Below are positions 21,257 through 48,291 of a stretch of 64,000 bases of DNA, one piece after another. The stretch's first letter is position 1. Each line of letters begins with the position of its first letter. The position numbers and the translations under genes are program-made. The stretch comes from an uncultured Gammaproteobacteria bacterium. Lineage in GTDB: Bacteria > Pseudomonadota > Gammaproteobacteria > DRLM01. The stretch spans positions 544,001-608,000 of the forward strand of contig CAVSNY010000007.1 in NCBI GenBank assembly GCA_963729605.1. The letters run 5' to 3'. Below the pieces are notes generated by a model that was given only the letters and a program-made list of their open reading frames with translations, searched no databases and was not told the origin of the DNA.

Positions 21257-22360
21257 TCAGGTCGGCGACGATTTGAGTTGAGTGAGTAATTGCTGCACCG
21301 GCGCCGCGAGTCCGCCCGGCGGCGGCGCGTCGAGATTGTACCAAACGGCCCCCGCCTCATCCATGACGCCAGCCACGTCGCTTGTATAACGGGCCAGCAC
21401 CGGTTGGATATCGAGATGAAAATGACTGAAGGTGTGGCGCAGGGGCGTCCAATGGGTGGTGTCCGCCACCTCGCAGCGCAGTTGTTCGCGGCACCACGCG
21501 GCGACATCGGTCTGCGCCGGGCATTCCGGCAGGCTCCACAAACCGCCCCAGATCCCGGCGGGCGGACGTTTCATCAGCAACACCGTGCCGGCCTTGCGCA
21601 GCAACAACATTTGGGTGCTGCGCACCGGTAAAACGCGGCGCGGTTTGGCGGTGGGGATGAACGCGACGCGGTCTTCCGCGCGCGCGACGCAGTCGACGCC
21701 GACCGGGCAGCGTTCGCAGGCGGGACGGCCGCGGGTGCACAAGGTCGCGCCGAGATCCATGATGGCCTGGGTGTAATCATCGCTGCGCCGCGCGGGCGTA
21801 TGACGGGCGGCCACCTCCCACAACAACGTTTCGACTTGTTTGACGCCGGGCCAGCCCTCGATGCCGTGATAACGCGTGAGCACCCGCTTGACGTTGCCGT
21901 CCAAGATGGGATGGTGCTGGCCTAAAGACAGCGCGAGGATCGCGCCGGCGGTGGAGCGGCCGATGCCGGGCAGTTCCACCAGCGTAGCGTGGTCGCGCGG
22001 GAGTTCGCCGTGGAAGACGTCGCGGATCAGCTGCGCGGCGCGGTGCAGATTGCGGGCGCGGGCGTAATAACCCAGCCCGCTCCAGTGGCGCAGCACCTCG
22101 TCGGCGGGCGCGTCGGCGAGCGTTACCACGTCGGGAAAGCGTTGCATGAAACGCTGGTAATAAGGGATGACGGTGCCGACCTGAGTCTGTTGCAGCATGA
22201 TCTCCGACACCCACACCCGATACGGCGAGGGCTCGTGTTGCCAGGGCAGATCCTTGCGGCCGTGGTGATCCCACCAGGCGAGCAGCCGCTCGCTGAAACG
22301 GTCCGCGTCGGGCGGCGGCGCGCCGCGGTTTTCGCCGGACGCGGGCGGGCGGCGGGTCAT
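21257..22360 (-). CDS. mutY: A/G-specific adenine glycosylase
   Basis: VWVSEIMLQQTQV, GLGYYARARN, LPGIGRSTAGAI, 4Fe-4S Cys motif. Confidence 0.96.
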   Translation of the reverse strand: MTRRPPASGENRGAPPPDADRFSERLLAWWDHHGRKDLPWQHEPSPYRVWVSEIMLQQTQVGTVIPYYQRFMQRFPDVVTLADAPADEVLRHWSGLGYYARARNLHRAAQLIRDVFHGELPRDHATLVELPGIGRSTAGAILALSLGQHHPILDGNVKRVLTRYHGIEGWPGVKQVETLLWEVAARHTPARRSDDYTQAIMDLGATLCTRGRPACERCPVGVDCVARAEDRVAFIPTAKPRRVLPVRSTQMLLLRKAGTVLLMKRPPAGIWGGLWSLPECPAQTDVAAWCREQLRCEVADTTHWTPLRHTFSHFHLDIQPVLARYTSDVAGVMDEAGAVWYNLDAPPPGGLAAPVQQLLTQLKSSPT

Positions 22361-32752: not shown

Positions 32753-33919
32753 TCAGTCCTCCGGCAAAAACAGCGCCGTGAGGTCGTTGAGAAAACGCTG
32801 GCCCAGTTCGGTGGGGCGGATGTGATGCAGGTCGCGCTCGATCAGACCCTTGGCCTCCGCCTGTTGCAGCGGTTTTTCGACGACGTTCAACGCCAGGCCG
32901 GTGTGTTCGGCGAACAGCGCCACGGGGAAACCATCGTTCAAACGCAGCGCGTTGAGCATGAAATCGAAGCCCGCTTCGCGCCGCGACAAGCTACGTTCGC
33001 TGGCGATGCGCGCGGCGCTCGCCGCCTTGGCCAGATACTCGCGCGGGTGGCGCAGCTTGGCGGTGCGGACGATGCGCTGATGCTGCGCGCTGCTGATCTT
33101 GGCGTGGGCGCCGGCGCCGATGCCGAGGTAATCGCCGAACAGCCAGTAGTTGAGATTGTGCCGGCAGCGGTGGCCCGCTTGCGCATAGGCCGACACCTCG
33201 TATTGTCCGTAACCCGCCGCCGCGATGCGCGTCTGGCAGTGTTGCTGTATCTCCCACAAGGCGTCGTGGTCCGGCAAGTTCGCCGGCGGCGTGTGGGCGT
33301 AGCGGGTGTTGGGTTCCAGCGTGAGTTGATAATGCGACAGGTGCGTGGGTTGCAGCGCGATGGCCTGTTCGAGATCGGCCAAGGCCTGCGCCACGCTTTG
33401 GCCGGGCAGGCCGAACATCAAATCCAAATTCAATTCGTCGAAGCCGGCGGCATGGGCGCGCTCGGCGGCGGTGATCGCCTCGCGCGCGCCGTGGATGCGC
33501 CCGAGTTTTTTCAGCATGTCGTCATTGAAACTCTGCACGCCGATGGAAAGACGGTTGATCCCCGCGGCGCGGAATTCCGCGAACTTGCCCGCCTCCAAGG
33601 TGCCGGGATTGGCCTCCATAGTGATCTCGGCGGTGGCGGGCAAGACCAATAAGGCCCGCAACTGCGAAAACAAACGGTCGATGCTCTCGGGCGAAAACAG
33701 ACTCGGCGTGCCGCCGCCGAGAAACACCGTCTCGATGGGGCGGCCCCAGATCGAGGGCAGGTCTTGTTCGAGATCGGCGATCAGCGCGTCGATATAAGCC
33801 CGCTCCGGCACCGCGTCCTTCGCCTCGTGGGAGTTGAAGTCGCAATACGGACACTTGCGTACGCACCACGGCAGGTGCACGTACAACGACAAAGGGGGCA
33901 GGGCGGCGAAGTTGAACAT
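32753..33919 (-). CDS. hemW: Radical SAM heme chaperone
   Basis: LSLYVHLPWCVRKCPYCDFNSH, GGGTPS, EANP, HNLNYW.FGDYLGIGAGAH. Confidence 0.95.
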   Translation of the reverse strand: MFNFAALPPLSLYVHLPWCVRKCPYCDFNSHEAKDAVPERAYIDALIADLEQDLPSIWGRPIETVFLGGGTPSLFSPESIDRLFSQLRALLVLPATAEITMEANPGTLEAGKFAEFRAAGINRLSIGVQSFNDDMLKKLGRIHGAREAITAAERAHAAGFDELNLDLMFGLPGQSVAQALADLEQAIALQPTHLSHYQLTLEPNTRYAHTPPANLPDHDALWEIQQHCQTRIAAAGYGQYEVSAYAQAGHRCRHNLNYWLFGDYLGIGAGAHAKISSAQHQRIVRTAKLRHPREYLAKAASAARIASERSLSRREAGFDFMLNALRLNDGFPVALFAEHTGLALNVVEKPLQQAEAKGLIERDLHHIRPTELGQRFLNDLTALFLPED

Positions 33920-34798: not shown

Positions 34799-35458
34799 AT
34801 GAAATTTAATAGAATGGTAATAATAAGCACGGTGTTCCTGTTTTTAGGAGTCAACGTCGCCCAAGCCAGTCCAATCACTACTCTCTACAATACAGGCGTG
34901 GACGCGAATGGTGTGGTGCTTGCTAATGGCGTGATCGGAGATCCGCACTATTCCCTGATATCAGTTCCGGGCGGAACCAGCACCATTATGACCCGCACTT
35001 CGGCCGGCGGTTATCCGATCGGACCTTGGCTCGCTGACAATGACTTATCGGTTTGGATCGGCCCCGCCAATAATTCTCAGCTGAACGGACCAGTAGGTGA
35101 TTTTATATATCGAACAAGCTTCGATCTCACGGGTTTTAATCCATTGAGCGCCTCGATTACCGGACAATGGGCAACGGACAATCCGGGTACCAGCCTGCTG
35201 CTTAACGGTATCGTAGCTGCCGGCATGACGACTACGGGTTATACCGTTTGGTCGCCCTTCATACTCACTAGCGGATTTATCGCCGGGATCAATACGCTTG
35301 ATTTCGTGGTCCGTAACAATGGCGGGCCAACAGGCTTGCGCGTGGAAATGACCGGCAATGCCTCACCCGCTATCGGAGCGGTTCCGGAGCCCGCAACGCT
35401 TGCCTTGTTCGGACTTGGATTGATGGGCGTTGCGTTAGGGCGTCGACGCAAGCATTAA
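34799..35458 (+). CDS. PEP-CTERM sorting-domain protein
   Basis: Signal peptide; C-terminal VPEPATLALFGLGLMGVALGRRRKH. Confidence 0.92.
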   Translation: MKFNRMVIISTVFLFLGVNVAQASPITTLYNTGVDANGVVLANGVIGDPHYSLISVPGGTSTIMTRTSAGGYPIGPWLADNDLSVWIGPANNSQLNGPVGDFIYRTSFDLTGFNPLSASITGQWATDNPGTSLLLNGIVAAGMTTTGYTVWSPFILTSGFIAGINTLDFVVRNNGGPTGLRVEMTGNASPAIGAVPEPATLALFGLGLMGVALGRRRKH

Positions 35459-36019
35459 ATCCGGATTTAATTTCATCCGAGATACGCTTGTGGCTCTCGA
35501 GGATGGGCAACACATCGAGGCTGAAACAGACCTGCTGCGGCGGCGGCCGGCGTGCACCAGATCGCAAGTTGCGCCAATGCGGCCGTGGTGAGGACAAAAG
35601 CAAAATGGCGGGATCGTTTGGCGTGAGGCATGACACGGCTCCTTGCCGTTTATGAGAATGGCATTTTAGCGCCTGGCGAGGGGAAGCCTCGGGGCCGGTA
35701 ATGAAACGCAGTGGAATCTTTTGATGTTGAGCTTCACTGCTCAGTCTGCGGAATTGTTGTAATGCCAACGATCGGAAGTGGGAGGCGACTGTAAAAAAAG
35801 TTAAACCCACCCCCGACGCGCTCCTAACTAACCGCCCGCACCTTACAGGAAACATTGACAAACATGTGGTATCTACTACGCTTCCTTCTCCACCGAAAAA
35901 CAAAATCTGCTCTTGACATCAAAGCAGCAAAGGGAGGGTTTCCCCGCATAGGCCGACATGGTGTTCCTAACGCTTGGCGCAGGAGACCAACTACTAACGA
36001 ATTGTGAAGGAGGCACCTT

Positions 36020-38644
36020 ATGTGTGTACATCCTCGCAGTATGCTGTTGGGTCTCTTGTTGGTCATTTCAAACTTTAATTTCATTCAGTTCGCCGCCGCC
36101 GCGGCCGGTGACCTCGATGCGGGTTTCGGCAGCGGAGGCAAGGTCACGACGGACTTTTCACCCACGGTAAACGACATCGATTGGGCGAATGACGTCGCGA
36201 TTCAAAGTGACGGTAAATTAGTCGTCGCCGGATATACCTTCGACTCCGGGACGAGCCCGACGCAACACTTCATGCTGGCGCGTTACCACCCTGATGGTAG
36301 CCTGGATGCCGGTTTCGGAGCAGGCGGTCTGGTGCAAACCAATTTTGGTAATCCGGGGGTTTTTGCCGGTGTAAAAATCCAGGCTGACGGCAAGATCGTG
36401 GCGGTGGGGTCAATTGCAGTGACGACGTTGACGACGGGGTCTCGGTTTTTTATCGCGCGATATAACAGCGACGGTAGCCTGGACACCAGCTTCGGCACCG
36501 GCGGCAGCACGACCACCGCCGCCGGTGAGAACGGGAGTAACGGCCTAGGACTGGCGATTCAGGCCGACGGAAAGATCGTTGTCGTCGGTTCCCATGGTCT
36601 CGCGTTTTCTGGACTCAACTTCGCCGTCGCGCGCTATAACACGGACGGCAGTTTGGACAGTAGCTTCGACGGTGACGGCATCGTGTCGACCGATATCGCC
36701 GGGAGTGGTGATGGCGCCAACGATGTTGCACTGCAAGCCGACGGCAAGATCGTCGTGGTGGGCGTGGGTGTTGATCCCTCACTATCCACCACCTCGCGCT
36801 TCGCCGTGGTCCGATACAACGCCAATGGTAGCTTGGATACTAGCTTTGACGGTGACGGCAAGACCACCACCGCGCTCGGTACCATACTCGACTCGGCGCA
36901 CGCCGTGGCCATTCAAGGCGATGGCAAGATCTTATTGGCGGGGTCGTCCCACAACAGCGCAACCAGCGCGCCGGATTTCGCGTTGGTGCGCTACACCACC
37001 GCCGGCAGTCTGGATGGCACGTTCAATGGGACGGGCCGCGTGGTCACGCCGTTTCCTTATGGCCAAAGCGTGGCCAATGGCGTGGTGGTATTGCCGAACG
37101 GAAAAATCGTTGCCGGCGGTTTTACGACCGGCGACCCCGGCGCCGCGTCGGGTAACGATTTCGCCTTGGCGCGTTACAACTCCAACGGTAGTTTGGACAG
37201 CAATTTCGGCACCGGCGGACTGGTGACGACACCCTTCGGCACCCCGGCGCTCGGGAGTGACGACTTCGCCAACGCGCTACTTTTGCAGCCGGACGGAAAG
37301 CTGGTGCTGGCCGGCTATCTCACCAAATTCGGCGTCGGTTCGGATCGAGATCTGGCGCTCGCACGCTATCTCGATGCCCCCGATCCGCCGGTCGCCAACG
37401 CCGGCCCCGACCAGAGCGTCAATGAGGGTGATACGGTGATCTTGGACGGCTCGGCCAGCGCTGACGCGGGGAACCCGCCGCTGACCTATCACTGGACGCA
37501 GTTGGCGGGCACGCCGGTGGCGTTGAATTTATCCGATCCCGTCCATCCCCTGTTCGTCGCGCCCAATGTCGCGTCGGGCGGCGAGACCTTGTCGTTCCAG
37601 TTGATCGTGAATAACGGCCTCGCCGACAGCGCTCCTGATACGGTCGATGTCACGGTAAAGAACGTTAATCACGCGCCGGTGGCGGACGCCGGCCCGGCGC
37701 AGACCGTGGCGGAAGGCGCGCCGGTCACCCTCGACGGCACCGGCAGCTTTGATGTGGACGGCGATACCCTCGCCTACGCGTGGACGCAAACCGCCGGTCC
37801 CGCCGTCACGCTCGCCGGTTCCACGACGGCCAATCCGACCTTCACCGCGCCGGCGGTGGCCAGCGGCAGTGTCGTGTTCACCTTCCAACTCACGGTCAGC
37901 GACGGCGCGCTTAGCGCGATTGCCTCCGTCAATGTGACGGTGGAGCATGTCAATCACGCACCGGCCGCTGACGCGGGCGCTCCGCAAACCGTCAACGAAG
38001 GCAGCGTGGTGATCCTCGACGGCTCGCTCAGCGGTGACCCCGACGGCGACGCGCTCACCTACGCGTGGACACAGTTGGCGGGACCGGCGGTGAGCTTGAA
38101 TTTAAGCAATCCAGTGCAGCCAGTGTTCACCGCGCCCAACGTCAGTTCGGGCGGAGCGGTGCTGCGTTTTCAACTGATCGTCAATGACGGCTCGTTGAGC
38201 AGTGCGCCGAGCACGATCGACATCACGGTGCTGGACGTGAACGACCCGCCGGTCTGCACCATGGCGCAAGCCTCGCCCGCGAGTCTGTGGCCGCCCAATC
38301 ACAAGCTGAAGTTGGTCACCATCACCGGCGCCAGCGATCCGAACAACGACGGTGTCACCCTGACCATCACCGGCGTGATGCAGGATGAGCCGGTCGATGG
38401 TTTGGGTGACGGCGATACCGATCCGGATGCGATCATTCAAGACGCCAGCGTGCTGTTACGCGCCGAACGGTCCGGCATGGACAATGGACGGGTCTACCAC
38501 GTCAACTTCACCGCGAATGACGGGCAGGGCGGCGTATGCAGCGGAACGGTGAAGGTCACTGTTCCCCATTCCAAAAATCAAACCGCCGTCGATGGCGGCC
38601 TCTTGTTCGATTCCACCGTCGATCTGCCGGATGGCGGACATTGA
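36020..38644 (+). CDS. Secreted delta-60 repeat (beta-propeller) plus PKD/Ig-like repeat protein
   Basis: About seven repeats of QADGKIVVAG...ARYNSDGSLDTSFG, then three PVANAGPDQ...LDGS PKD-like repeats. Confidence 0.88.
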   Translation: MCVHPRSMLLGLLLVISNFNFIQFAAAAAGDLDAGFGSGGKVTTDFSPTVNDIDWANDVAIQSDGKLVVAGYTFDSGTSPTQHFMLARYHPDGSLDAGFGAGGLVQTNFGNPGVFAGVKIQADGKIVAVGSIAVTTLTTGSRFFIARYNSDGSLDTSFGTGGSTTTAAGENGSNGLGLAIQADGKIVVVGSHGLAFSGLNFAVARYNTDGSLDSSFDGDGIVSTDIAGSGDGANDVALQADGKIVVVGVGVDPSLSTTSRFAVVRYNANGSLDTSFDGDGKTTTALGTILDSAHAVAIQGDGKILLAGSSHNSATSAPDFALVRYTTAGSLDGTFNGTGRVVTPFPYGQSVANGVVVLPNGKIVAGGFTTGDPGAASGNDFALARYNSNGSLDSNFGTGGLVTTPFGTPALGSDDFANALLLQPDGKLVLAGYLTKFGVGSDRDLALARYLDAPDPPVANAGPDQSVNEGDTVILDGSASADAGNPPLTYHWTQLAGTPVALNLSDPVHPLFVAPNVASGGETLSFQLIVNNGLADSAPDTVDVTVKNVNHAPVADAGPAQTVAEGAPVTLDGTGSFDVDGDTLAYAWTQTAGPAVTLAGSTTANPTFTAPAVASGSVVFTFQLTVSDGALSAIASVNVTVEHVNHAPAADAGAPQTVNEGSVVILDGSLSGDPDGDALTYAWTQLAGPAVSLNLSNPVQPVFTAPNVSSGGAVLRFQLIVNDGSLSSAPSTIDITVLDVNDPPVCTMAQASPASLWPPNHKLKLVTITGASDPNNDGVTLTITGVMQDEPVDGLGDGDTDPDAIIQDASVLLRAERSGMDNGRVYHVNFTANDGQGGVCSGTVKVTVPHSKNQTAVDGGLLFDSTVDLPDGGH

Positions 38645-38770
38645 AGCAGCGGCGGAGGTTAGTAACCGAATCGTGACCGGCCATGGTGCGCGTGGTTACT
38701 GCGCATCATGGCCGGCGCGAGGCATCTGCATAAGCGGCACGATAGCTTGGTCGTGAATGATCTTCAGCTC

Positions 38771-39118
38771 TGTAGGTTGAACGTAGTGAAGCCCAGCATG
38801 GAGTTACTCGTAATAACCGCCGGCCCAACGTGTTATGGACAAATCCATTCCACCCATTGTGCCCGTTTTCCAGAACGCATCAAATGAATCGGCATGTGAT
38901 GTTGGGCTTAATTTCATTCAGCCCAACCTACAGGACTTCAGCCTATGTAGGTTGGGTTGAACGTAGTGAAACCCAACATGGAGTTACTTGTGATAACCGC
39001 AGATCAGGTGTGCCATGAAGAAACCCATCCCGCCCATTGCGCTAGTTTTCCGGTAACGCATCAATTAAATTGGCATGTGATGTTGGGCTTCATTTCATTC
39101 AGCCCAACCTACAGGACT
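38771..39118. repeat. Two tandem GTAG-type REPIN elements
   Basis: TGTAGGTTGGGTTGAACGTAGTGAAACCCAAC...GTTGGGCTTCATTTCATTCAGCCCAACCTACA inverted REP pairs around a ~90-bp spacer. Confidence 0.8.
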
Positions 39119-39168
39119 GCCCATCACGCGCGTGCGTCCTCGCACGTCGCGTGATGGGCTTGTTATGC
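39116..39168 (-). mobile_element. attC site, R' end disrupted by REPIN
   Basis: GCATAAC followed by hairpin GCCCATCACGCG...CGCGTGATGGGC, just after the cassette ORF stop. Confidence 0.75.
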
Positions 39169-39183
39169 GCCGCCACCAAGCCT

Positions 39184-39624
39184 TTATCTGGCGATTTTCG
39201 AAAACTCACACTTCAGTTGCACGGACCGCGCCTTTACTCCTGCACCAATGACACTGTGACCATTGACCTGCGATGCGGCGATGACTTTGAGCTTTGTATG
39301 GATGACGTATGTCCATACGCTAACAGCAGTAGAATTTTTCGCGACAGAACCAACCACCAAGACTTCTTCTGTACTTCCAAGAACCTCGGCGGGCTTTCCG
39401 TCCACCAGAGCTTCAGACTTGCCGTTATACTCAAACAGCCATTTGCCCCCGAAACGCTCATTCTCTGACCAGCCGTCCGCAAGCAGCCCGCCATCAATAC
39501 CGATCTCCTGGCGGTAGCCCTCAGTACGTGTGTCGACGCAGACGGCAGTGAAGCCTTCTACCGCGAAGGAACTCTCTGCAGCGGCAAGGAGGACGACTGC
39601 GATCAAACTCCTCTGCAGTGTCAT
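39184..39624 (-). CDS. Gene cassette: secreted hypothetical protein
   Basis: AGAGGAG RBS, signal peptide; cassette bounded by GTTATGC...GCATAAC. Confidence 0.75.
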   Translation of the reverse strand: MTLQRSLIAVVLLAAAESSFAVEGFTAVCVDTRTEGYRQEIGIDGGLLADGWSENERFGGKWLFEYNGKSEALVDGKPAEVLGSTEEVLVVGSVAKNSTAVSVWTYVIHTKLKVIAASQVNGHSVIGAGVKARSVQLKCEFSKIAR

Positions 39625-39643
39625 ACGACGATCTCCTCTGATC

Positions 39644-39865
39644 GCATAACTTAAAGTAGACCCCGATATTGGGGTGTTATAACACACCATTTTTAGCACC
39701 TAATCCCGCTGATATAGCCATAACCCTGTGCTTCAATTGGCATCAGCCTATATCAATCCGTAAAAGTACACCACTAAACGCACGGAGAAATAGGGCGTGA
39801 AGAACTAGCCGAATCTTATGATGGAGCTTATCGCGCTATTGGCGTCAGGGTGGCCGAATATTCTC
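39644..39865 (-). repeat. attI/promoter-like block, copy A
   Basis: Near-identical to 44219-44439 and 45629-45849; similarity ends at a GTTRRRY core. Confidence 0.8.
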
Positions 39866-39972
39866 TTACCCCCGCAACGCCTCAATCAACTTCCGCAATG
39901 CCAGCCCGCGATGGCTCAAACTGTTTTTGATGTCAGGCGTTAATTCGGCGGAGGAGCAGTCGTGGGTGGGGA
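39866..39972 (-). pseudogene. rdgB: Duplicated rdgB 3' end, copy A
   Basis: Encodes [33 protein letters not shown], matching the rdgB C-terminus. Confidence 0.9.
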
Positions 39973-40077
39973 GTGAGGGCAACGGCAAATAGCGGGATCG
40001 TTTGCCGTTAGACATGACACGGCGTCTTGCCGTTTGTGAGAATGGCATTTAGCGCGTGGCGAGCCGGGAAGTCCGCG

Positions 40078-41732
40078 TCACATCTCCTTCAGATATTCGT
40101 GCACGAACAGGACCGCCATCGACCCCTCGCCGACGGCCGAGGCGACGCGCTTGACCGAGCCGGACCGGACGTCGCCCGCGGCGAAGACGCCGGGGCGGCT
40201 GGTCTCCAGCAGGTAGGGCTGCCGACGTGCCGTCCACGCCTCGGAATTCGCCAGGGACGGCCCCGGTCCGGACGAATCCCTTCTCGTCCTTCTCGATCTC
40301 CGGGGGGAGCCAGTCGGTCCGCGGCGTCGCGCCGATGAAGCTGAACAGGGCCGGGGTCTTGATCGTCCGCGCCTCGCCCGTCTTGTTGTTGACGACCTCG
40401 ACCTCGCGGAGGCAGCGGTCCCCGGACATCCGCCGGACCTCGGTGTTGAGGAGCACCTCGATGTTGGGGGTCTCCTCGATCCGCTGGGCCAGGTAGCTCG
40501 ACATGTGCTTGTAGAGGTCGTCGCCGCGGACCACGAGGTACACCTTGCGGACCTGCCCGGCGAGGAAGACGGCGGCCTGGCCGGCGGAGTTGCCGCCGCC
40601 GACGACCACGACGTCCGAGCCCTCGGCAGAGCTGCGCCTCGATGGGGGTCGCGGCGTAGTAGACGCCGCACCCTTCGAACCGCTCGCACCCCTCGACGCC
40701 CAGCCGGCGGTAGTCGGCCCCGGTGGCGATCAGCAGGCACTTGGCCGAGACCGTCTCGCCGTCGTCGAGGTGCAGCACCGCGTACTTGTTGTCGAACGTC
40801 AGGCCCGTGACCGGCGAGGCGACGGGCAGGTGCGCCCCGAACTTGTTGGCCTGCACGACGGCGTTCTCGGCAAGTTCGCCGCCGGTGATGCCGGTGGGGA
40901 AGCCGAGGTAGTTCTCGATCCGCATGCTGCGGCCGGCCTGACCCCCGGGCGCGTCCCGCTCCAGCACGACCGTGTTCAGCCCCTCGGAGGCGCCGTAGAC
41001 GGCCGCGGCCAGCCCCGCCGGGCCGGCCCCCACCACGGCCAGGTCGTACACCGTGTGCTCGAGCGGCCGGCGGAGGCCGAGGGCATCCGCCAGCTCCTCG
41101 GTTCGAGGGGTTGCGCAGGAGCAGCTTGTGGCCCCAGGCGACCACGGGCGTGTCGGCCTCGGTCAGCCCGGACTGCTCGAGCAACTGCTTCACCTGCGGG
41201 TCGGCCTCCAGGTCCAGCCAGGTGAACGGCACCCGGTTCTTGGCCAGGAACTCGCGGACCCGGAAGGTGTCCTGCGAGTAGCGCGACCCGATCACGCGCA
41301 GGCCCGTGAAGTCCCCCGATCTCGTGGAGGAGGTGGCGGCGGGCGATGAAGGCCCGGAGGATGACGTCGCCCAGGTCCGGGTGGACGTTCAGGATCTCAC
41401 GCAGGGCATCGTTCGAGACCTCGAAGACGTCGCACTCGCCCCGGGCGACGCCGCTGAAGATCGCCGGGCCCCCGGTCAACTGGGCCACCTCGCCGGTGAA
41501 CTCCCCGGGCCCGAGGGTCGCGACGATCTTCGGCTCATCGCCGGAGTCGTCGACGATCTCGACCTCGCCGGTCTTGACGACGTAGAAGTTGCAGTCGCAT
41601 TGCGCCGGCTTCGAAGAGCTTCTCCCCGTCGCGATAATGCTTGAGCTTCGACAGAGGGCAGCCCTCCAGCGCGGCGAGCTGGGCCTCGTCGAGCCTGGGG
41701 AATGCGGCGGCGTGCAGGTCCTGATCGATCAT
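40078..41732 (-). pseudogene. cNMP-binding domain plus thioredoxin-reductase-like oxidoreductase, multiply frameshifted
   Basis: VVGAGPAGL, IENYLGFPTGI, GGGNSAGQAA, AGDVRSGSVKRVASAVGEG spread over several frames; visibly very GC-rich. Confidence 0.85.
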
Positions 41733-41769
41733 GTCTCGGGCTCCTTTGGTTCGACGCTGTCTGCTTCAG

Positions 41770-42157
41770 TCACACAGGACCGGCAGGATATGCTCCGGCA
41801 CCGGCAGCGCCGTCTCGTCGACGTAGACAGCCTTGCCCATGAGTGAGTCGATCTTGCGTTTCATCGCCTGGGGTGAATATCTCAGGTTTGCAGGTATCGC
41901 CATAGGCCGGACGGCCGCTGTCGTCGTTGCGCTGGTCGAAGAACGACAAGTCCAGCTCGTGGTCGATCAGAGAATTGACGGTGTATTCAAACGTGCCGGG
42001 GAGAATCTGGTCCCGAAAGGAGATCGGGATCATCTTGCCTTGCTCGTAGCAGTAATCCTTGTGGCGGGCCATCCATTCCCCCTTCAGGCTGAGCGGCCTG
42101 TTATGGCATCTTGGATAGCAGTAATTATAGGACCGAATGGGGTTTTTCTACAGGTTC
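41770..42157 (-). mobile_element. IS1182-family remnant (left end plus transposase N-terminus)
   Basis: End sequence GAACCTGTAGAAAAACCCC, then MARHK...QILPGTFEY...LDLSFFD...GRPAY. Confidence 0.7.
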
Positions 42158-42660
42158 AACGTTCGCGCTTGCCGAGCGCCCGTGTTGAGCGTTGGGTTGG
42201 GGCTCATGTTGTACCGTGCCATGATGGTTGCAGCGACATCTCGGTGAACTTGGGTGGACGGATGAAAGTGGATCTCTGTTTGATACATTGGCCACTGTCC
42301 GGCGCAGCGGATAAGGAAAACAACTTCCGCCTCAACCGTCTCGATGTCTAGCGTCGGATTCTCCGTCGGAGGATCGTCGTGGCACCATACGTCGAGGAAC
42401 GCCTCGGTGAGGTCGTGGCGCCATGCGTACCCGTAATACCCTCCCTTGCCCGCAGCATTCCAACCGAAGCGCAGGCGGTTCCTAACCGATTGCTTGGTGA
42501 CGCCGACGTAGATTGGCCGTTCATCAACGCTCGCAATATAGAGTTTTGGCTTCGTCGACGTCGCAATACCCGAGAAGTTGGCCGTCCCCTTCTCGCATTC
42601 GACGACGAAGGCAATCTCGTCAAACGTGAGCTTGTAGCGCTGAGGGCCGGTAATGCGCAT
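42148..42660 (-). CDS. Gene cassette: GIY-YIG-like nuclease
   Basis: KLYIASVDERPIYVGVTKQSVRNRL and a later Glu (VEAE); cassette bounded by GTTGGGG...CCCCAAC. Confidence 0.65.
   Translation of the reverse strand: MRITGPQRYKLTFDEIAFVVECEKGTANFSGIATSTKPKLYIASVDERPIYVGVTKQSVRNRLRFGWNAAGKGGYYGYAWRHDLTEAFLDVWCHDDPPTENPTLDIETVEAEVVFLIRCAGQWPMYQTEIHFHPSTQVHRDVAATIMARYNMSPNPTLNTGARQARTLNL
42154..42202 (-). mobile_element. Short attC abutting the IS end
   Basis: CCCCAAC...GTTGAAC; the IS end begins right after GTT. Confidence 0.6.
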
Positions 42661-42668
42661 GCTATGAG

Positions 42669-42729
42669 CCCCAACGCCCAGCATCAGCGAGTGGCGCGTA
42701 GCGCCGTCCGCTGCATGCTGTTGTTGGCG
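42669..42729 (-). mobile_element. attC site
   Basis: CGCCAAC-aacagcatgcagcg...cgctgatgctgggc-GTTGGGG, imperfect palindrome, 61 bp. Confidence 0.85.
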
Positions 42730-42738
42730 GCTTAGCGG

Positions 42739-43668
42739 TCATTTCGAGTGCTTCTCTTCGTACATCTGTTTGTCGGCGGCTAAGCAGGCACCAACGAGTC
42801 CGACCGCCGGGTCGCGCATGGCGAGGCCAATGGAAGCCTTGACGTTCGCTTCGCTTAGCGCCGTCCGAACACGCTTGAGGAACGTCTGCGCGTCGGAACG
42901 GTCGCATTCGGCGAGGAGGATGCCGAACTCATCTCCCCCCAGACGCGCAACGATGTCGCTTGTCCGGGCAACGTTGCGCAATGCAGCGCTCGCGCGCACG
43001 ATGAGCGCATCGCCTGCCGCGTGCCCCTCCCTGTCATTCACTGCTTTCATGTCGTCCAAATCAATGATCAAAACTGCCGCAGGATGGCCATACCGGAGGC
43101 AGCGCTCCTCTTCGGAGGCCAATAGGCGATCCCAACCGCGCCGGTTGTACAAACCCGTCAGTTCGTCCGTCAACGCCTCGACTTGGAGTTTCTCGGAACG
43201 GCGGGTCTCCTCTGCGGCCTTAAGCTCAGCCTGAAGAATCGTGCTCAACATGGCTGCGAGCAACTCCACGAGTTCTTGCTCTTCGACGATCGACTCGGGT
43301 TGGGGCGAGGGGTGAATTGCACATAGCGTCCCAAACAGGCTCCCGTCCGAGCGCACCAAAGGCAGACCGACATACGACCCGATCTGGACCTGACGCCCGA
43401 TCGGCGCCCCTTCATATGCAGGGACGTCCGCCGAACGCGGCGCAATGCGGGGGCCGTTACCCTTGACCATCTCGGAGCAAAATGAATCGGCCCAACGAAA
43501 AACCGTACCCGGCTCGACGCCGTAACCGTGATCCTCGCTCTGCAGCACGATCCAGTCGTCACCCTCTGTCCGGGTGACCATCCAGAGATCGAAACCCAAT
43601 CGCCGGTGGAGAAATGAAAGCACCTCCCGCCCGGCTGATTCGAAATCCCTGATGCAATCCGTATTCAT
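42739..43668 (-). CDS. Gene cassette: GAF-GGDEF diguanylate cyclase
   Basis: GAF (FGTLCAI), DELTGLYNRR, GGDEF. Confidence 0.9.
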   Translation of the reverse strand: MNTDCIRDFESAGREVLSFLHRRLGFDLWMVTRTEGDDWIVLQSEDHGYGVEPGTVFRWADSFCSEMVKGNGPRIAPRSADVPAYEGAPIGRQVQIGSYVGLPLVRSDGSLFGTLCAIHPSPQPESIVEEQELVELLAAMLSTILQAELKAAEETRRSEKLQVEALTDELTGLYNRRGWDRLLASEEERCLRYGHPAAVLIIDLDDMKAVNDREGHAAGDALIVRASAALRNVARTSDIVARLGGDEFGILLAECDRSDAQTFLKRVRTALSEANVKASIGLAMRDPAVGLVGACLAADKQMYEEKHSK

Positions 43669-43688
43669 TTTACGCCTCTCTATAAACC

Positions 43689-43776
43689 GCCCAACGTCGC
43701 CGTTCAGAGGCCGCGTCAGCGGCGCGAAGCGCAGCCCAGCTGGCAAGCGGTCCACTGCAACGGCTGGCTATTATGT
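43689..43776 (-). mobile_element. attC site
   Basis: ACATAAT-agccagccgttgcag...ctgaacggcgac-GTTGGGC, 88 bp. Confidence 0.8.
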
Positions 43777-43777
43777 C

Positions 43778-44200
43778 TCACTCTTGGACAACCCACTCGG
43801 GATTCCACGCCACTTCCCACAGATGCCCGTCAGGGTCTTGGAAGTAGCCCGCGTAACCACCCCAAAAGGTGTCGTGCGCTGGCTTCACGACAACTGCACC
43901 CGCTCTCCTGGCCTGGTCCATAACTGTGTCGACTTCGACTTTCGAGGAGACGTTGTGCCCAATGGTGAAATCGGTCGCGTTTGGGTTGCCAAGAGCGATC
44001 CCGGTATCGTGCGCAATGCTCTTTCGCGGCCAAAGCGCGAGCTTCAAACCGGCCTCGAGCTCGAAGAAAGCCACTGCGCCATGCTCGAACTGTGTGCCGA
44101 CAACGCCCTCGGTCTTCAAGCACAGACCGTCACGGTAGAACCGGACTGCCCTTTGTAGATCGTCAACACCGAGAGTGATGAGCGTTATCCGGGGTTTAAT
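43778..44200 (-). CDS. Gene cassette: VOC/glyoxalase family protein, start codon reads ATT
   Basis: (I)KPRITLITLGVDDLQRAVRFYRDGL...FWGGYAGYFQDPDGHLWEVAWNP. Confidence 0.8.
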   Translation of the reverse strand: MKPRITLITLGVDDLQRAVRFYRDGLCLKTEGVVGTQFEHGAVAFFELEAGLKLALWPRKSIAHDTGIALGNPNATDFTIGHNVSSKVEVDTVMDQARRAGAVVVKPAHDTFWGGYAGYFQDPDGHLWEVAWNPEWVVQE

Positions 44201-44218
44201 GCGCTGACGCTCCGTGAG

Positions 44219-44439
44219 GCATAACTCAAAGTAGACCCCAATATCGGGGTGTTATAACACACCATTTTAGTACCTAGTCCCGCTGATATAGCTATAAGCC
44301 TGTGCTTCAATTGGCCTCAGCCTATATCAATCCGTAAAAGTACACCACTAAACGCACGGAGAAATAGGGCGTGAAGAACTAGCCGAGTCTTATGATCGAG
44401 CTCGTCGCGCTAGTGGCATGAGGGTGACCGAATATTCTC
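44219..44439 (-). repeat. attI/promoter-like block, copy B
   Basis: Second copy, ending ...TCTACTTTGA GTTATGC. Confidence 0.8.
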
Positions 44440-44598
44440 TTACCCCCGCAACGCCTCAATCAACTTCCGCAATGCCTGCCCGCGATGGCTCAAACTGTTC
44501 TTGATGTAAGGCGTTAATTCGGCGGAGGAGCAGTCGTGGGTGGGGACGTAGAACACCGGGTCGTAGCCGAAGCCGTTTTCGCCGCGCGGTGAAAACAG
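44440..44598 (-). pseudogene. rdgB: Duplicated rdgB 3' end, copy B
   Basis: Near-identical to 45850-46008; ends at the REPIN. Confidence 0.9.
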
Positions 44599-44776
44599 CC
44601 TATGTAGGTTGGGTTGAACGTAGTGAAACCCAACATGGAGTTACTGGTGATAACCGCAGACCAGGTGTGCCATGAAGAAACCCATCCCGCCCATTGCGCC
44701 AGTTTTCTGGTAACGCATCAATTAAATTGGCATGTGATGTTGGGCTTCATTTCATTCAGCCCAACCTACAGGACTG
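44598..44776. repeat. GTAG-type REPIN
   Basis: Near-identical to 38941-39118. Confidence 0.85.
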
Positions 44777-44781
44777 AGATG

Positions 44782-45216
44782 TTAGGCCTCATAAAAGCTA
44801 AGTAATCCATGCTGACGCACCCATACAATGAATTTCTCGGCCTCTTGCGGCAACTTACGCCCACATAGTTGAAAGTTAACGACCGCCCGAACGAGCATTA
44901 AGACTGCGGCTTCGTCATCAAACGTAAACCGATCTTCTGCTGCGACCTTTGCGTGCTTTAAGGCGTTCCGAAGTTTGGACGCACGACCATACAGCGCTTC
45001 CTCTGACAGATTCAAGCCTCGGCGCTCACTCTCGTCATACATCATTCGAAGAATGTTCTTCTTTCCCGCGCGCCGCAGAATATTTCCACAGATCTCTTCC
45101 GCCGCACCTGCGAGAGTCATTACAGATACCAAGTCGCCATGCAGGAAATACAAGTCGCAGGCGGTCCTGATTTGACGCTCTGCCGCTTTCAGCTTCGTTA
45201 AGGCGTGCCGTGCCAT
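44782..45216 (-). CDS. Gene cassette: HEPN-like hypothetical protein
   Basis: AAERQIRTA, TLAGAAEEI, RNALKH (Rx4H); stop overlaps GCCTAAC of a truncated attC. Confidence 0.65.
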   Translation of the reverse strand: MARHALTKLKAAERQIRTACDLYFLHGDLVSVMTLAGAAEEICGNILRRAGKKNILRMMYDESERRGLNLSEEALYGRASKLRNALKHAKVAAEDRFTFDDEAAVLMLVRAVVNFQLCGRKLPQEAEKFIVWVRQHGLLSFYEA

Positions 45217-45223
45217 TGGTAAG

Positions 45224-45286
45224 GCCTACCATGGAGCTAAGGGGCTGCGCGCTTTTGCGCAGTCCCACTTGAGCGCAGGGTTAGAC
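45224..45286 (-). mobile_element. attC site
   Basis: GTCTAAC-cctgcgctcaagtgggactgcgcaaaagcgcgcagccccttagctccat-GGTAGGC, 63 bp. Confidence 0.85.
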
Positions 45287-45619
45287 CTTTGCTTTGAGTT
45301 TTGCACGAATAACAGATTTTGCCTTTTCATCTGCGCTGTCCCAAAGTGCGAATAGTCCGAATGCATAGAGCCGTTCGTTCATTGTCATACCATTGATGCC
45401 TTCAATTGCTTCAGCCTTAAACTGAATCCAGTCTTGGTAGAATTTATTTGAAACGTTAGTCTCTTTAAACCACACATTGCCGTGCCATTTTCCAACGACA
45501 TAGCTCAATTTTTCAATTGAATCTTCATTTCTTTTCCATTCATCAATCCAATAAGCCAACTGATTTCTTAGATCGGATTCACTGTCGGGAAGGGATTGGA
45601 CAAGATCGTCGAGGTTCAT
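45281..45619 (-). CDS. Gene cassette: hypothetical protein
   Basis: AT-rich ORF whose stop lies in the attC R'' box; GMTMNERLYAFGL motif. Confidence 0.75.
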   Translation of the reverse strand: MNLDDLVQSLPDSESDLRNQLAYWIDEWKRNEDSIEKLSYVVGKWHGNVWFKETNVSNKFYQDWIQFKAEAIEGINGMTMNERLYAFGLFALWDSADEKAKSVIRAKLKAKV

Positions 45620-45628
45620 CGGATAAAT

Positions 45629-45849
45629 GCCTAATCAAAGTAGACCCCAATATTGGGGTGTTATAACACACCATTTTTAGTACCTAATCCCGCTGATATA
45701 GCCATAACCCTGTGTCTTAATTGGCCTCAGCCTATATCAATCCGTAAAAGTACACCATTAAACGCACCGAGAAATAGGGCGTGAAGAACTAGCCGAATCG
45801 TATGATGGGGCTTATCGCTCTAGTGGCGTGAGGGTGGCCGACTATTCTC
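45629..45849 (-). repeat. attI/promoter-like block, copy C (next to intact rdgB)
   Basis: Third copy, ending ...TCTACTTTGA TTAGGC. Confidence 0.8.
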
Positions 45850-46440
45850 TTACCCCCGCAACGCCTCGATCAACTTCCGCAATGCCTGCCCGCGATGGCT
45901 CAAGCTGTTTTTGATGTCGGGCGTTAATTCGGCGGAGGAGCAGTCGTGGGTGGGGACGTAGAACACCGGGTCGTAGCCGAAGCCGTTTTCGCCGCGCGGT
46001 GAAAACAGGATGCGGCCTTCCCAGGTGCCTAGACAGATGAGCGGGGTGGGGTCGGCGGCGTGGCGCAGATACACCATCACGCATTGGAAGCGTGCGCCGC
46101 GTCGTGGTTCGGGTACGTCGGCGAGATCGGTCAGGAGTTTGTTCACGTTGTCGCGGTCGTTGGCGGCGGGGCCGGCGTAGCGCGATGAATAAATGCCGGG
46201 CGCGCCATTGAGGGCGTCGACTTCCAGACCGGAGTCGTCGGCGATGGCGGGCAGGCCGGTGTGTTGCGCGGCGTTGCGCGCTTTGAGGATGGCGTTTTCG
46301 ACGAAGGTGAGGCCGGTTTCTTCCGCTTCGATGACGCCGAATTGCGATTGAGGTTCGACGTGAAGATCGAGACCCGCGAGCAGTTGGTTGATCTCGCGGA
46401 CCTTGCCGGTGTTGCCGGTGGCGAGCACGATTTTTTTCAT
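45850..46440 (-). CDS. rdgB: dITP/XTP pyrophosphatase
   Basis: [29 protein letters not shown]. Confidence 0.96.
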
Positions 46441-46561
46441 CGGGAAAAATGTTCCAACGCAAAGGCGCACGGATGCGAAGTATCGGTTTCAATCAGCAGC
46501 GGATTTTGAATTTCCATTCCTGTCTACCTTCGCGTCTTCGCGCCCTTGCGTCGGATTTGAA

Positions 46562-47278
46562 TTATCCCGCCAGCGCCGCCCGCTGTTTGGCGGTGAGTTC
46601 GGCGATGCCGGTCTTGGCGAGTTCTAGCATGGCTTGCAGTTCGTCCATGCGGAAGGCGTGGCCTTCGGCGGTGCCTTGCACTTCGATGAAGGCGCCGGCC
46701 TCGTTCATCACCACGTTCATGTCGGTCTCGGCGTTGGAGTCTTCGGCGTAGTCGAGGTCGAGCACCGGCACGCCTTTATAAATGCCCACCGACACCGAGG
46801 CCACTTGGCCGTAGAGGGGATTTTTGTTCAGGCCGCCGTTTTTCATCAAATGTTTGACCGCGTCCACTAGCGCCACGTAGCCGCCGGTGATGGAGGCGGT
46901 GCGGGTGCCGCCGTCGGCCTGAATCACGTCGCAGTCGACGGTGATGGTGCGCTCGCCGAGGGCGCTCAAGTCCACCACCGCGCGCAGCGAGCGGCCGATC
47001 AGGCGCTGGATTTCCATGGTGCGGCCGCCTTGTTTGCCCTGCGCGGCCTCGCGCTGGGTGCGTTGGCCGGTGGCGCGCGGCAACATGCCGTATTCGGCGG
47101 TGACCCAGCCCTTGCCGCTGCCTTTGATCCAGCGCGGGGTGCGCTCGTCGACGCTGGCGGTGCACAACACGCGGGTGTCGCCGAACTCCACCAGCACCGA
47201 ACCTTCGGCGTGTTTGGTGTAGTTGCGGGTGAAACTGATAGTGCGGAGCTGATCGGGCTGTCTGCCGCTGGGACGCAT
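46562..47278 (-). CDS. rph: Ribonuclease PH
   Basis: [31 protein letters not shown]. Confidence 0.97.
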
Positions 47279-47424
47279 CGGGAATCCTATCTGTACTACT
47301 TTGGAAGGGGGGGCATTATAGCCCGCGGGCGGGGTGCGGGCCACGCTAAAAACGCCGGATTTTTCAATTTCCGGCGAAGGGCGTACCATGGCCGATCATT
47401 AAAAATAGCAACGAGGGGTTCGAC

Positions 47425-48291
47425 ATGATACGCAGTATGACGGCATTCGCCCGCCATGAGCGCGAGACGCCGTGGGGGACGCTGACTTGGGAGCTGCGTT
47501 CGGTCAATCACCGCTATCTGGAGGTCTATCCCCGCTTGCCCGACGATTTGCGCGCGCTGGAGACGCCGGTGCGCGAGCGTGTCACCGCCGCCCTGGGTCG
47601 CGGCAAGCTCGAATGTCAGTTGCGCTTTCGTTCCGTGGAGGCCGCGACCGCGGGCTTTTCGCTGGACCGGGATTTGATCGCCGGGCTGGTGGCCGCCACC
47701 GGCGAAGTGACGGCGGCTCTGCCCGCCGCCGCCGCGGTGAATCCCCTCGACGTGTTGCGTTGGCCCGGTGTGGTGCGCGCCGCGCCCCTCGATTATGAAG
47801 GCATCGCCGAGGCGGCGATGGCCGGTCTGAACCTGGCGTTGGCCGAACTGGTGGACACCCGCGAGCGCGAGGGGGCGAAATTACGGGTCCTGATCGAGCA
47901 GCGCTGCGACGCCATTGACACACAAGTCAGCGCGGTGACGCAGCGGGTGCCCGAGGTGCTGGCCCGGCAGCGCGAAAAACTCGTCGCCCGCCTCGCCGAG
48001 GTGCGCGCCGAACTGGACCCGTCGCGCCTGGAGCTGGAGATGGTGTTGTTCAGCCAGCGGTTGGACGTGGGCGAGGAAGTGGATCGCCTCGCCGCCCACA
48101 TCGGCGAGGTGCGGCGGGTGCTCAAACAGAAGGAACCGGTGGGCCGCCGCCTGGATTTTCTGATGCAGGAGCTCAATCGCGAGGCCAATACCTTGGGTTC
48201 CAAATCGGCGGATGTTGAGACCACCCGCGCCTCGGTGGAGCTGAAGGTCTTGATCGAGCAGATGCGAGAGCAGGTGCAGAATATTGAATGA
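47425..48291 (+). CDS. yicC: YicC/YloC family endoribonuclease
   Basis: MIRSMTAF, SVNHRYLE, GRRLDFLMQELNREANTLGSK, QMREQVQNIE. Confidence 0.96.
   Translation: MIRSMTAFARHERETPWGTLTWELRSVNHRYLEVYPRLPDDLRALETPVRERVTAALGRGKLECQLRFRSVEAATAGFSLDRDLIAGLVAATGEVTAALPAAAAVNPLDVLRWPGVVRAAPLDYEGIAEAAMAGLNLALAELVDTREREGAKLRVLIEQRCDAIDTQVSAVTQRVPEVLARQREKLVARLAEVRAELDPSRLELEMVLFSQRLDVGEEVDRLAAHIGEVRRVLKQKEPVGRRLDFLMQELNREANTLGSKSADVETTRASVELKVLIEQMREQVQNIE

Follow-up and report, generated by a model that had tools for sequence, protein, structure and literature searches.

The cassettes of integrons end in attC sites, imperfect palindromes of the layout R''-L''...L'-R' in which exchange takes place at G|TT, and the site at the head of an array, attI, is expected to comprise integrase-binding repeats plus a simple site. 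The origin and usability of cassette clusters without an integrase are an open question in integron biology. Such clusters are called CALINs (clusters of attC sites that lack an integron-integrase) when at least two attC sites are clustered and no intI lies within 4 kb; in the part of the survey cited here, half of the CALINs belong to genomes without intI, and recognisable intI pseudogenes are near only 15 of 279 (PMC4889954). In that same part, attI was not assessed in CALINs, because IntegronFinder annotates only attI of classes 1–3, by exact match (PMC4889954); standard tools do not look for attI outside these classes. This report concerns a locus behind rdgB in an uncultured Gammaproteobacteria bacterium (GCA_963729605.1, labelled G000; 3.48 Mb, 7 contigs, 94.5% complete). 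It lies in a window of 64 kb, the whole stretch analysed, which spans positions 544,001 to 608,000 of contig CAVSNY010000007.1; coordinates without a contig label refer to this window. The locus is a testable case of an attI surviving without an integrase and tied to a housekeeping gene in two species.

The locus is probably an orphan integron platform, that is, an attI without intI, which sits behind rdgB and has been stacked by displacement-type recombination. Its unit is a module consisting of an rdgB 3' end and the non-coding block behind it. Repeat finding within the window, BLAST against the whole genome and direct reading give three copies of this module and no more, all on the minus strand:

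45850–46470, minus strand: intact rdgB (dITP/XTP pyrophosphatase), assigned from its open reading frame (ORF) and from homology in genomes of the family; its 3' end opens module C
45628–45849, minus strand: block C (222 nt, non-coding), completing module C; attI module of ~150 nt at about 45635–45783, core ATTAGGC at 45635–45629
44440–44598, minus strand: rdgB'_B, displaced rdgB 3' fragment from ~aa 155 to the stop, 96.9% identical to intact rdgB over 159 nt; opens module B
44219–44439, minus strand: block B, completing module B; attI core GTTATGC at 44225–44219
39866–39972, minus strand: rdgB'_A, displaced rdgB 3' fragment from ~aa 171 to the stop, 96.3% identical over 107 nt; opens module A
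39644–39865, minus strand: block A, completing module A; attI core GTTATGC at 39650–39644

The last ~160 nt of the intact gene are the template for the duplicated fragments. The module copies are 96–97% identical to one another in the rdgB part and 91–93% in the block (BLAST). On the minus strand, blocks A and B end in GGGGTCTACTTTRAG|TTATGC and block C in ...TTTGA|TTAGGC. Past these ends the three copies have no similarity, and they lead into unrelated cassettes, of which C has two, B three and A one. A preliminary description of this stretch had reported a non-coding block of ~220 bp behind the intact rdgB and two rdgB 3' ends, with similarity halting at a GTTRRRY-type core before two, three and one different cassettes, and repeat finding, BLAST and direct reading bear it out on both counts. 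The span it gave, 39116..46008, is right in the main and short at its left edge: the structure reaches about 38645, taking in two REPIN repeats (doublets of repetitive extragenic palindromic, or REP, hairpins) and a conserved terminal segment.

Judged by homology, the end of the rdgB block is an attI. Comparison was made with relatives, among which G001 and G002 share the genus of the window, G006 belongs to the same family, and G004, G008, G009 and G011 belong to the neighbouring genus g2. The last ~65 nt of the rdgB block can be aligned with sequence about 250 nt upstream of the intact intI of G006 (489 bits). A near-identical palindrome-plus-core stands ~130 nt upstream of a 316-aa open intI on metagenome contig L064. 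The block end also aligns with attI beside intI remnants of G000 itself, with GTCTACTTTRAGTTAGGC in common. A nine-way alignment has as its common features a GGATTAG-type box at equal spacing, an inner palindrome and a GTCTAC...GTTRRRY core; in addition, the GTACTTTTAC motif is conserved between the rdgB blocks and other attI regions. Near the intI remnant at C7:412215-412467, about 160 nt from its start and facing away from it, ...GATGTCTACTTTAAG|TTAGGC is followed by a low-GC ORF and a textbook attC. An 18-mer from this remnant-side attI, allowing up to 4 mismatches, matches 17 places in the genome. Of these matches, 8 head low-GC gene runs and include two of the three rdgB blocks; the third block has an indel-like change. 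The proposal that the block acts as an attI-type head of the arrays is thus supported by its homology to attI beside intact intI (G006, L064) and beside remnants. Exact-pattern scanning of the genome contigs gave 24 loci, of which only L045 (149 nt, 92.6%) and L053 (30 nt) extend past the seed, the others being chance matches; metagenome contigs gave 4 loci, 1 of them relevant (L064). No pattern emerged in the pairing of attI type with IntI lineage, at identities of 55–72%. An Rfam search of 36000–48000 (E<=1) returned only three sub-threshold miRNA-model matches, two of them on REPIN hairpins and none in the block.

As for the integrase, a search with profile TIGR02249 (cut-off 265 bits) gave no match above the cut-off in the whole assembly, the best reaching 76 bits, and neither this profile nor the ORF list contains a recombinase ORF in 38600–46500. 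The sub-threshold matches are two remnant pieces and two pairs of stretches at a level seen in every control genome. The nearest intI remnant, C7:412215-412467, covers residues 1–45 and 94–135 with one stop and lies beside lysA, about 177 kb away. The earlier statement that no integrase is nearby is therefore correct and understated, since none is intact genome-wide. Among the 40 relatives searched in the same way, 12 have intI above the cut-off, including both genomes of the same genus (two copies in G001, and G002). It had been suggested that the integrase acted in trans or has since been lost; it is indeed gone from the assembly and intact in relatives, and action in trans and loss stand as alternatives. 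BLAST with the remnant region brought up further modules made of an intI 5' stump plus attI, 75–91% identical, so that nine attI-like sites exist besides the rdgB blocks, most with an intI 5' stump of 15–250 nt:

C7:412057: attI-like site beside the intI remnant
C7:406105: attI-like module in tandem with the one above, 6 kb farther downstream
C7:1211836: attI-like module
C5:230005 and C5:232504: attI-like modules in tandem, 2.5 kb apart
C4:27197: attI-like module
C2:532: attI-like module, 530 nt from the contig end
C7:325563: attI-like piece of 41 nt
C7:382589: attI-like site with its own attI and a different stump (N-terminal ~20 residues)

Wherever the contig allows a view, low-GC ORFs, from one to about ten, come behind each of these orphan attI before native high-GC DNA resumes. 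Together with the three rdgB blocks, this amounts to about 12 attI-like sites and no intact integrase. Two families resembling miniature inverted-repeat transposable elements occur near orphan attI modules (C7:409400-410200, C7:325600-325800, C7:1212050-1212200 and C5:230160-230330), in many cases immediately upstream of the intI stump; inverted ends of the GGGACAGATTTATTTAT type mark one family and GTAGGGCGGAAGCCC...CCGCCCTAC ends the other.

The cassettes behind the three blocks carry what are, by their layout, attC sites. An initial heuristic (regex plus fold) was too strict: on the correct strand of the window it recovered 0 sites, with a few in relatives, and it served only to harvest training sites. 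A home-built covariance model, R1, was made from eight attC sites outside the window (five from other arrays of the genome, two from G004 and one from G001) and run with filters off over both strands of the window at E<=10. It gave 18 matches, of which ranks 1, 3, 4, 5 and 15 fall on predicted cassette ends, all on the minus strand as predicted:

45225–45634, minus strand: cassette C1, with ORF 45281–45619 (112 aa, no family) and attC 45224–45286 (R1 rank 4 over 45224–45286, 12.8 bits)
44777–45224, minus strand: cassette C2, with ORF 44782–45216 (144 aa, no family) and an attC reduced to the R'' box GCCTAAC at 44781–44787, a REPIN abutting (R1 rank 5 over 44759–44787, R''/R' boxes only, 11.8 bits)
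43689–44224, minus strand: cassette B1, with a glyoxalase/vicinal-oxygen-chelate-fold protein from 43778 to about 44200 and attC 43689–43769 (R1 rank 15 over 43689–43769, 8.3 bits)
42669–43690, minus strand: cassette B2, with a GAF-GGDEF diguanylate cyclase at 42739–43674 and attC 42669–42729 (R1 rank 1 over 42669–42729, 16.7 bits, E 0.019)
42154–42674, minus strand: cassette B3, with a 178-aa ORF at 42148–42684 and attC 42154–42206, which overlaps the 3' end of the ORF (R1 rank 3 over 42154–42190, 13.5 bits)
39120–39649, minus strand: cassette A1, with a secreted-looking 146-aa ORF at 39184–39624, attC R'' box GCATAAC at 39163–39169 and a REPIN at the R' position

Four of the five best R1 matches in the window are thus predicted cassette ends, which is how the attC calls fared under the covariance-model test proposed for them, here with a home-built model. 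The start and end heptamers agree exactly in A1 (TTATGC / GCATAAC) and B3 (TTGGGG / CCCCAAC), with one mismatch in C2 (GTAGGC / GCCTAAC) and C1 (TTAGGC / GTCTAAC) and with two in B1 (TTATGC / ACATAAT); the complementarity claimed for them is mostly borne out, B1 being the weak case. As single-stranded DNA, three of the five sites folded fall significantly below shuffled sequences (z of −7.09 for A1, −5.44 for B2 and −2.81 for C1). GC content is 0.48–0.56 in the cassettes against 0.6–0.7 in the flanks. It is because position, strand and heptamer logic coincide, and not because of any single score, that the sites are assigned as attC.

Among the products, the B1 protein matches PF00903 (1.5e-17) and has only far sub-cut-off similarity to FosA models; no canonical start codon was seen for its ORF. 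The B2 protein matches PF00990 (3.7e-31) and PF01590 (5.8e-09). The B3 protein has no Pfam or NCBIfam match and resembles GIY-YIG and Eco29kI-like nuclease clusters in a protein atlas (0.94–0.97); B3 could be a small nuclease or defence cassette, and the GIY-YIG likeness is a lead only.

Repeats of a different kind abut two of these cassettes. REPINs are pairs of inverted REP hairpins tied to a REP-associated tyrosine transposase (RAYT), and they are represented here as follows:

44599–44776: REPIN copy 3, two inverted REP hairpins with 34-nt arms, 98% identical to 38939–39119
38939–39119 and 38770–38937: two tandem REPIN units

In these 180-nt units, inverted arms of 34 nt stand 100 nt apart, each arm being a GTTGGG...CCCAAC hairpin. 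The genome holds about 10 such hairpins, 5 of them at the rdgB locus. The same hairpin lies on both sides of the RAYT ORF C3:193943-194473 (region C3:193888-194507), which matches NF047646 with 180.8 bits against a cut-off of 80. The units, with their GTTGGGC...GCCCAAC pattern, had been entertained as giant attCs or non-coding cassettes, and this was rejected because the REP hairpin flanks the RAYT gene; the units are REPINs, their likeness to attC cores being superficial. In 39102–39125 and 44770–44790 the REPIN start (…AGTC|CTGTAGG) falls exactly at the expected R' of the terminal attC (A1 and C2, respectively).

The anchoring on rdgB can be followed in relatives. RdgB is 68–85% identical in amino acid sequence over its full length in 8 of the 11 other family genomes; G001 has only a 3' fragment. 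In G002, whose RdgB is 85% identical, the rdgB-hemW interval measures 3.6 kb and contains, behind rdgB, a diverged homologous block (roughly two-thirds identical by eye) that ends in ...AATTTTAG|TTAGCT and is followed by two co-oriented ORFs without a Pfam family. In genus g2 the rdgB-hemW gap is 55–100 nt in G009 and G011 or about 740 nt in G004 and G008; the wider gap is filled by a cytochrome-c-like ORF in G004 and by another small ORF in G008. A small cytochrome-c-like ORF precedes hemW in both G002 and G004. The comparison of the rdgB-hemW interval that had been proposed thus gives the block in G002 and an interval of 55–100 or about 740 nt in genus g2, and the idea of an attI anchored on a housekeeping gene gains from its presence behind rdgB in a second species.

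G001 has a block copy that is 93% identical over 149 nt and heads a cassette, this time behind a diacylglycerol kinase gene. Identity between G001 and the window is only 83.6% over 73 nt of the rdgB 3' end. Since the module is more alike between species than the neighbouring rdgB, this suggests that the 150-nt attI module moves. In G001 the array end (attC plus a 132-nt terminal segment) is joined to an rdgB fragment that begins at about residue 135, after which native DNA follows; this 110-contig assembly lacks rph and the 5' part of rdgB. At the end of the first G001 cassette the opposite strand carries an ORF for a group II intron reverse transcriptase/maturase (L011 2107–3147 on G001:C72; RVT_1 8.1e-32, GIIM 5.8e-18), and Rfam at the gathering score found nothing, group II intron RNA included, on three relatives' loci. 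Group IIC introns are described, in the part of the source cited, as associated with attC sites (PMC7923331).

The joints between modules indicate how the stacking came about. rdgB'_B is joined to a REPIN flank via a 3-nt microhomology, CAG, 6 nt past the REPIN end, and rdgB'_A is joined to the first 14 codons of a cytochrome-c-like ORF with 0–2 nt of microhomology. The start points of the rdgB' fragments differ, lying at about aa 171 (A), 155 (B) and 135 (G001). Because the joints avoid attC and attI cores and the breakpoints differ, the stacking was not the work of an integrase or another site-specific enzyme.

Independent samples were consulted in the form of Logan contigs from four runs of four studies, in which a contig indicates presence and not frequency. 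They cover most of the locus piecewise, at 90–99% identity and in other arrangements; the best of the 24 listed runs contains 26% of the sampled words, and gaps in coverage (for example over A1 and C2) are uninformative. In run X4, record 13 (550 nt) bridges REPIN|rdgB'_B, reaching 178 nt into the REPIN side and 33 nt into the rdgB' side; its sequence upstream of the REPIN is unlike C2. As this contig contains it, the REPIN|rdgB'_B junction is not an artefact of the present assembly. Record 27 of run X6 begins 30 nt inside rdgB'_B, one short of the bridging rule. The X4 contigs also join 38769 to 39973, a form without module A, and 42673 (R' of the B2 attC) to a REPIN, which makes a simple attI-B1-B2-REPIN array. 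In X6 the same position 42673 is joined, after 185 other letters, to another attI block, so that stacking occurs in a different sample; in X1 and X6, 42154 (R' of the B3 attC) is joined to an rdgB 3' end. These contigs show that cassette neighbours change exactly at attC ends, and the tandem stacking described earlier is real beyond this assembly (X4 junction, X6 arrangement). An X6 contig 'goes back 62' at the C1 attC (45224–45285), which suggests a tandem duplication of this attC in another population.

The remaining features of the locus are the following:

46562–47389: rph, upstream of rdgB (ORF list)
39973–42153, minus strand: non-cassette filler carried with module B
41770–42072, minus strand: transposase-like N-terminal fragment, part of the filler
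40049–41732, minus strand: frameshifted gene resembling cyclic-nucleotide-binding/thioredoxin-reductase proteins, GC ~0.7, part of the filler
39973–40071, minus strand: cytochrome-c-like ORF fragment (promoter region plus first 14 codons), part of the filler
38645–38769, minus strand: terminal array segment, beginning (TT)AGCTGAAG, 91.7% identical over 132 nt to G001, where it adjoins another rdgB' fragment
32858–33892, minus strand: hemW (TIGR00539, 369.6 bits), which natively follows rdgB and now lies about 12 kb from it

No Pfam or NCBIfam family matches the transposase-like fragment, and the genome has no further copy of it; we take it, as an assumption, to be IS1182-like. The reductase-like gene is split into four frames, and its GC content is unlike that of its surroundings. 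Contigs of four other samples are one base shorter at 40258, 40625, 41100, 41318 and 41605 (in one run also at 41789), and the frameshifts represent either a decayed pseudogene or local assembly indels. A second cytochrome-c-like 5' copy lies near hemW at 35588–35686 (region 35488–35700, minus strand). It is 85% identical to the first; both copies are truncated, the one on the hemW side being cut after about 55 codons by a low-GC insert at 34800–35480. Between the arrays and hemW there is a large, secreted-looking DUF5122 beta-propeller/PKD-repeat protein (36020–38644, plus strand), convergent with the array; its gene is missing from the rdgB-hemW interval of G002 and genus g2.

In the displacement reading, the platform would be an attI with its ~150-nt upstream region, co-oriented with rdgB inside the ancestral rdgB-hemW interval, and attC-bounded cassettes would have been loaded at this attI by an integrase encoded elsewhere or since lost. 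Incoming DNA from a related strain (rph-rdgB-attI-cassettes) would pair via the conserved rph-rdgB/attI region, and its far end would be joined illegitimately a short way into the resident rdgB. Each such event would leave a complete rdgB and a new array in front and push the old rdgB 3' stump, attI and cassettes downstream. Alternatively, a looped-out circle could be the source, entering by Campbell-type insertion through the block or by attI x attI exchange with the same product. Displacement is the simplest account because it covers the conserved upstream anchor, the varied rdgB breakpoints, the microhomology joints and the strain-level divergence of the copies. Integrons and cassettes are reported, in the part of the source cited, to pass between species by natural transformation (PMC3410848). 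The genome has ComEC and DprA, which lends weak support to this route. With only intI remnants left in the assembly, the arrays probably stay frozen as long as no integrase comes in from elsewhere to act in trans. There is no predicted terminator between rdgB and C1 on their strand; as C1 lies 222 nt behind rdgB on the same strand, its expression by read-through from rdgB is plausible.

This relatively simple account is complicated by several observations that weigh against it. The assembly is 94.5% complete, and an intI on the missing DNA is possible. The R1 scores are individually weak (8–17 bits, E 0.02–8), and R1 did not match the A1 attC in the window at E<=10. Rank 2 is a non-array site (22062–22128, minus strand, 14.7 bits), and 12 further matches also lie elsewhere; the rank 2 site, in high-GC DNA outside any array, is probably a false positive. 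The fold z values of B1 (−1.46) and B3 (−0.74) are no better than those of shuffles. In the rdgB-linked loci of G002 and G001, R1 found no convincing attC; run on five loci at E<=1, it gave 10 matches, of which 2 are training sites, with none in L072 and L073 and a weak one in L074. A complete integron has a cassette promoter, Pc, upstream of attI; a consensus scan found no sigma-70-like promoter in the blocks. Outside support exists for only one of the two inter-module junctions and for none at A, and X4 has a form without module A. The searches for ComEC and DprA also matched 10 of 14 control genomes, E. coli included (DprA above the cut-off in all 10, ComEC in 5). Finally, we infer the recombination route and the order of events from anatomy alone.

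A bolder and doubtful extension is that the genus has a split integron. The attI platform would be kept behind rdgB with read-through from the rph-rdgB operon, and integrases would be encoded elsewhere or on mobile DNA; platforms and cassettes would be traded between strains by transformation-type displacement, giving several live landing sites per chromosome, and many CALINs may begin in this way. G001 fits such a picture: it has two intact intI, a cassette headed by an orphan copy of the attI block, and an rdgB stump to which an array is fused.

Unlikely on the whole is tandem duplication in situ, by illegitimate and possibly REP-associated unequal sister exchange, followed by divergence and integrase-driven replacement of cassettes. 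It would agree with junctions that are illegitimate, one of them 6 nt beyond a REPIN end, with the 98% identity of the REPINs after C2 and A1, and with states that the three rdgB' copies share (for example GAATTAACGCC) and that are missing in G001 and G002. Its difficulty lies in the unevenness of the divergence, which is 2% for the REPINs, 7–9% for the blocks and 15% for the cytochrome-c-like stump, and in the module-B filler, which contigs of four other samples carry in different contexts at about 94% identity and which looks imported; on these two grounds it is ranked below displacement. Moreover, direct repeats of 330 nt are expected, from general knowledge, to be lost or homogenised before reaching 8% divergence. 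Synonymous and non-synonymous sites in the rdgB' fragments are too few to separate import from decay in situ.

An assembly chimera, in which variants of one locus from co-existing strains were concatenated, is very improbable. The module copies do differ by strain-level amounts, single-module forms (attI-B1-B2-REPIN) do exist in other samples, and the reductase-like gene has 5–6 single-base, indel-type differences from four samples that are possible assembly errors. However, the joins are novel junctions, from a REPIN flank or cytochrome codon 14 to mid-rdgB, and not within shared sequence where an assembler would have had reason to make them; the REPIN|rdgB' junction is bridged by a contig of the unrelated run X4, and in G001, independently, an rdgB' fragment is joined to the end of an array. 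There is equally little to recommend the view that the block is not an attI and that cassettes entered at secondary GTT-type sites next to an unrelated conserved intergenic element. Integrases are reported, in the part of the preprint cited, to be able to insert cassettes outside att sites (10.1101/2022.09.11.507474), and the block has neither an Rfam match nor an intI remnant beside it; yet ~65 nt of it align with regions directly upstream of intact intI in two unrelated sources, and the same ~150 nt travel with cassettes to a different anchor gene in G001. The least probable explanation, a site-specific integrative island that targets the rdgB 3' end, supplies a replacement 3' end and accretes in tandem, has in its favour the repeated gene 3' ends flanking inserted DNA, a classic island signature, and the G001 order of array, rdgB' and native downstream gene, but founders on fragments that start at three different codons (about 171, 155 and 135) with no identical att boundary, on repeats that include ~220 nt of non-coding DNA downstream of rdgB, and on the lack of a recombinase gene in or beside any module.

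The locus suggests that attI can move between species as a 150-nt module and, if displacement is the right account, be multiplied by ordinary recombination and not by an integrase. Should the orphan sites be functional in trans, such arrays would be reservoirs that any incoming integrase could reshuffle, not dead remnants, and the growth of arrays would gain a second, integrase-independent route.

Compared with a complete integron, the locus has attC-bounded cassettes and, by homology, an attI head, and lacks beside the array an intI, the gene for an integron-type tyrosine recombinase with its extra domain. It falls within the definition of a CALIN: array B has three R1-supported attC sites within 1.7 kb (by the home-built model), and there is no intI in the window or the genome. 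Like CALINs, it consists of attC cassette arrays with no intI within reach; unlike them, each array at rdgB is headed by a recognisable attI with about 150 nt of platform DNA, and the platform, tied in two species to a housekeeping gene, is repeated threefold in tandem. The 180-nt units resemble the REPIN/RAYT system in having two inverted REP hairpins per unit and a RAYT gene flanked by the same hairpin; the differences are that the family is small here and that two units sit exactly at the expected R' box of a terminal attC.

Sedentary chromosomal integrons with a degraded integrase, as described for Xanthomonas in the part of the preprint cited (10.1101/2025.06.18.660453), are similar in having an array beside a housekeeping gene, integrase decay and cassettes of mostly unknown function. 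By contrast, the rdgB locus has no intI or remnant; rdgB stands in the place of intI, co-directed with the cassettes, and the intI remnants of this genome lie at other loci with a different attI subtype. The C-terminal displacement arrays of rhs genes and type VI secretion systems (T6SS) offer a mechanistic parallel: in the part of the source cited, their strings of orphan 3' regions are attributed to homology-facilitated illegitimate recombination (PMC5361080). In them, too, the upstream anchor is conserved, new modules enter in front, and the old 3' stumps end up downstream together with their cargo (PMC5361080). Here, however, the cargo is an integron landing site with cassettes in place of toxin tips and immunity genes, and the displaced gene is not polymorphic.

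A full-text literature search for integron, attC and rdgB together found no paper, and a search for a second or duplicated attI returned only recombination studies employing two attI sites and papers on Salmonella genomic island 1 in which a second attI is mentioned (among the papers on this island, PMC2297512 and PMC7056807). In104 of this island is said to be a complex class 1 integron with a second attI1 behind a truncated intI1. As at rdgB, there is more than one attI per array region, and in front of the downstream one stands a stump of the gene usually found upstream of attI. In104 is mobile, bears an integrase and carries resistance, whereas at rdgB the stump is from a housekeeping gene, the units number three and an integrase is lacking. 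The nearest structural precedent for the stacked platforms behind rdgB is the complex class 1 integron with a second attI1.

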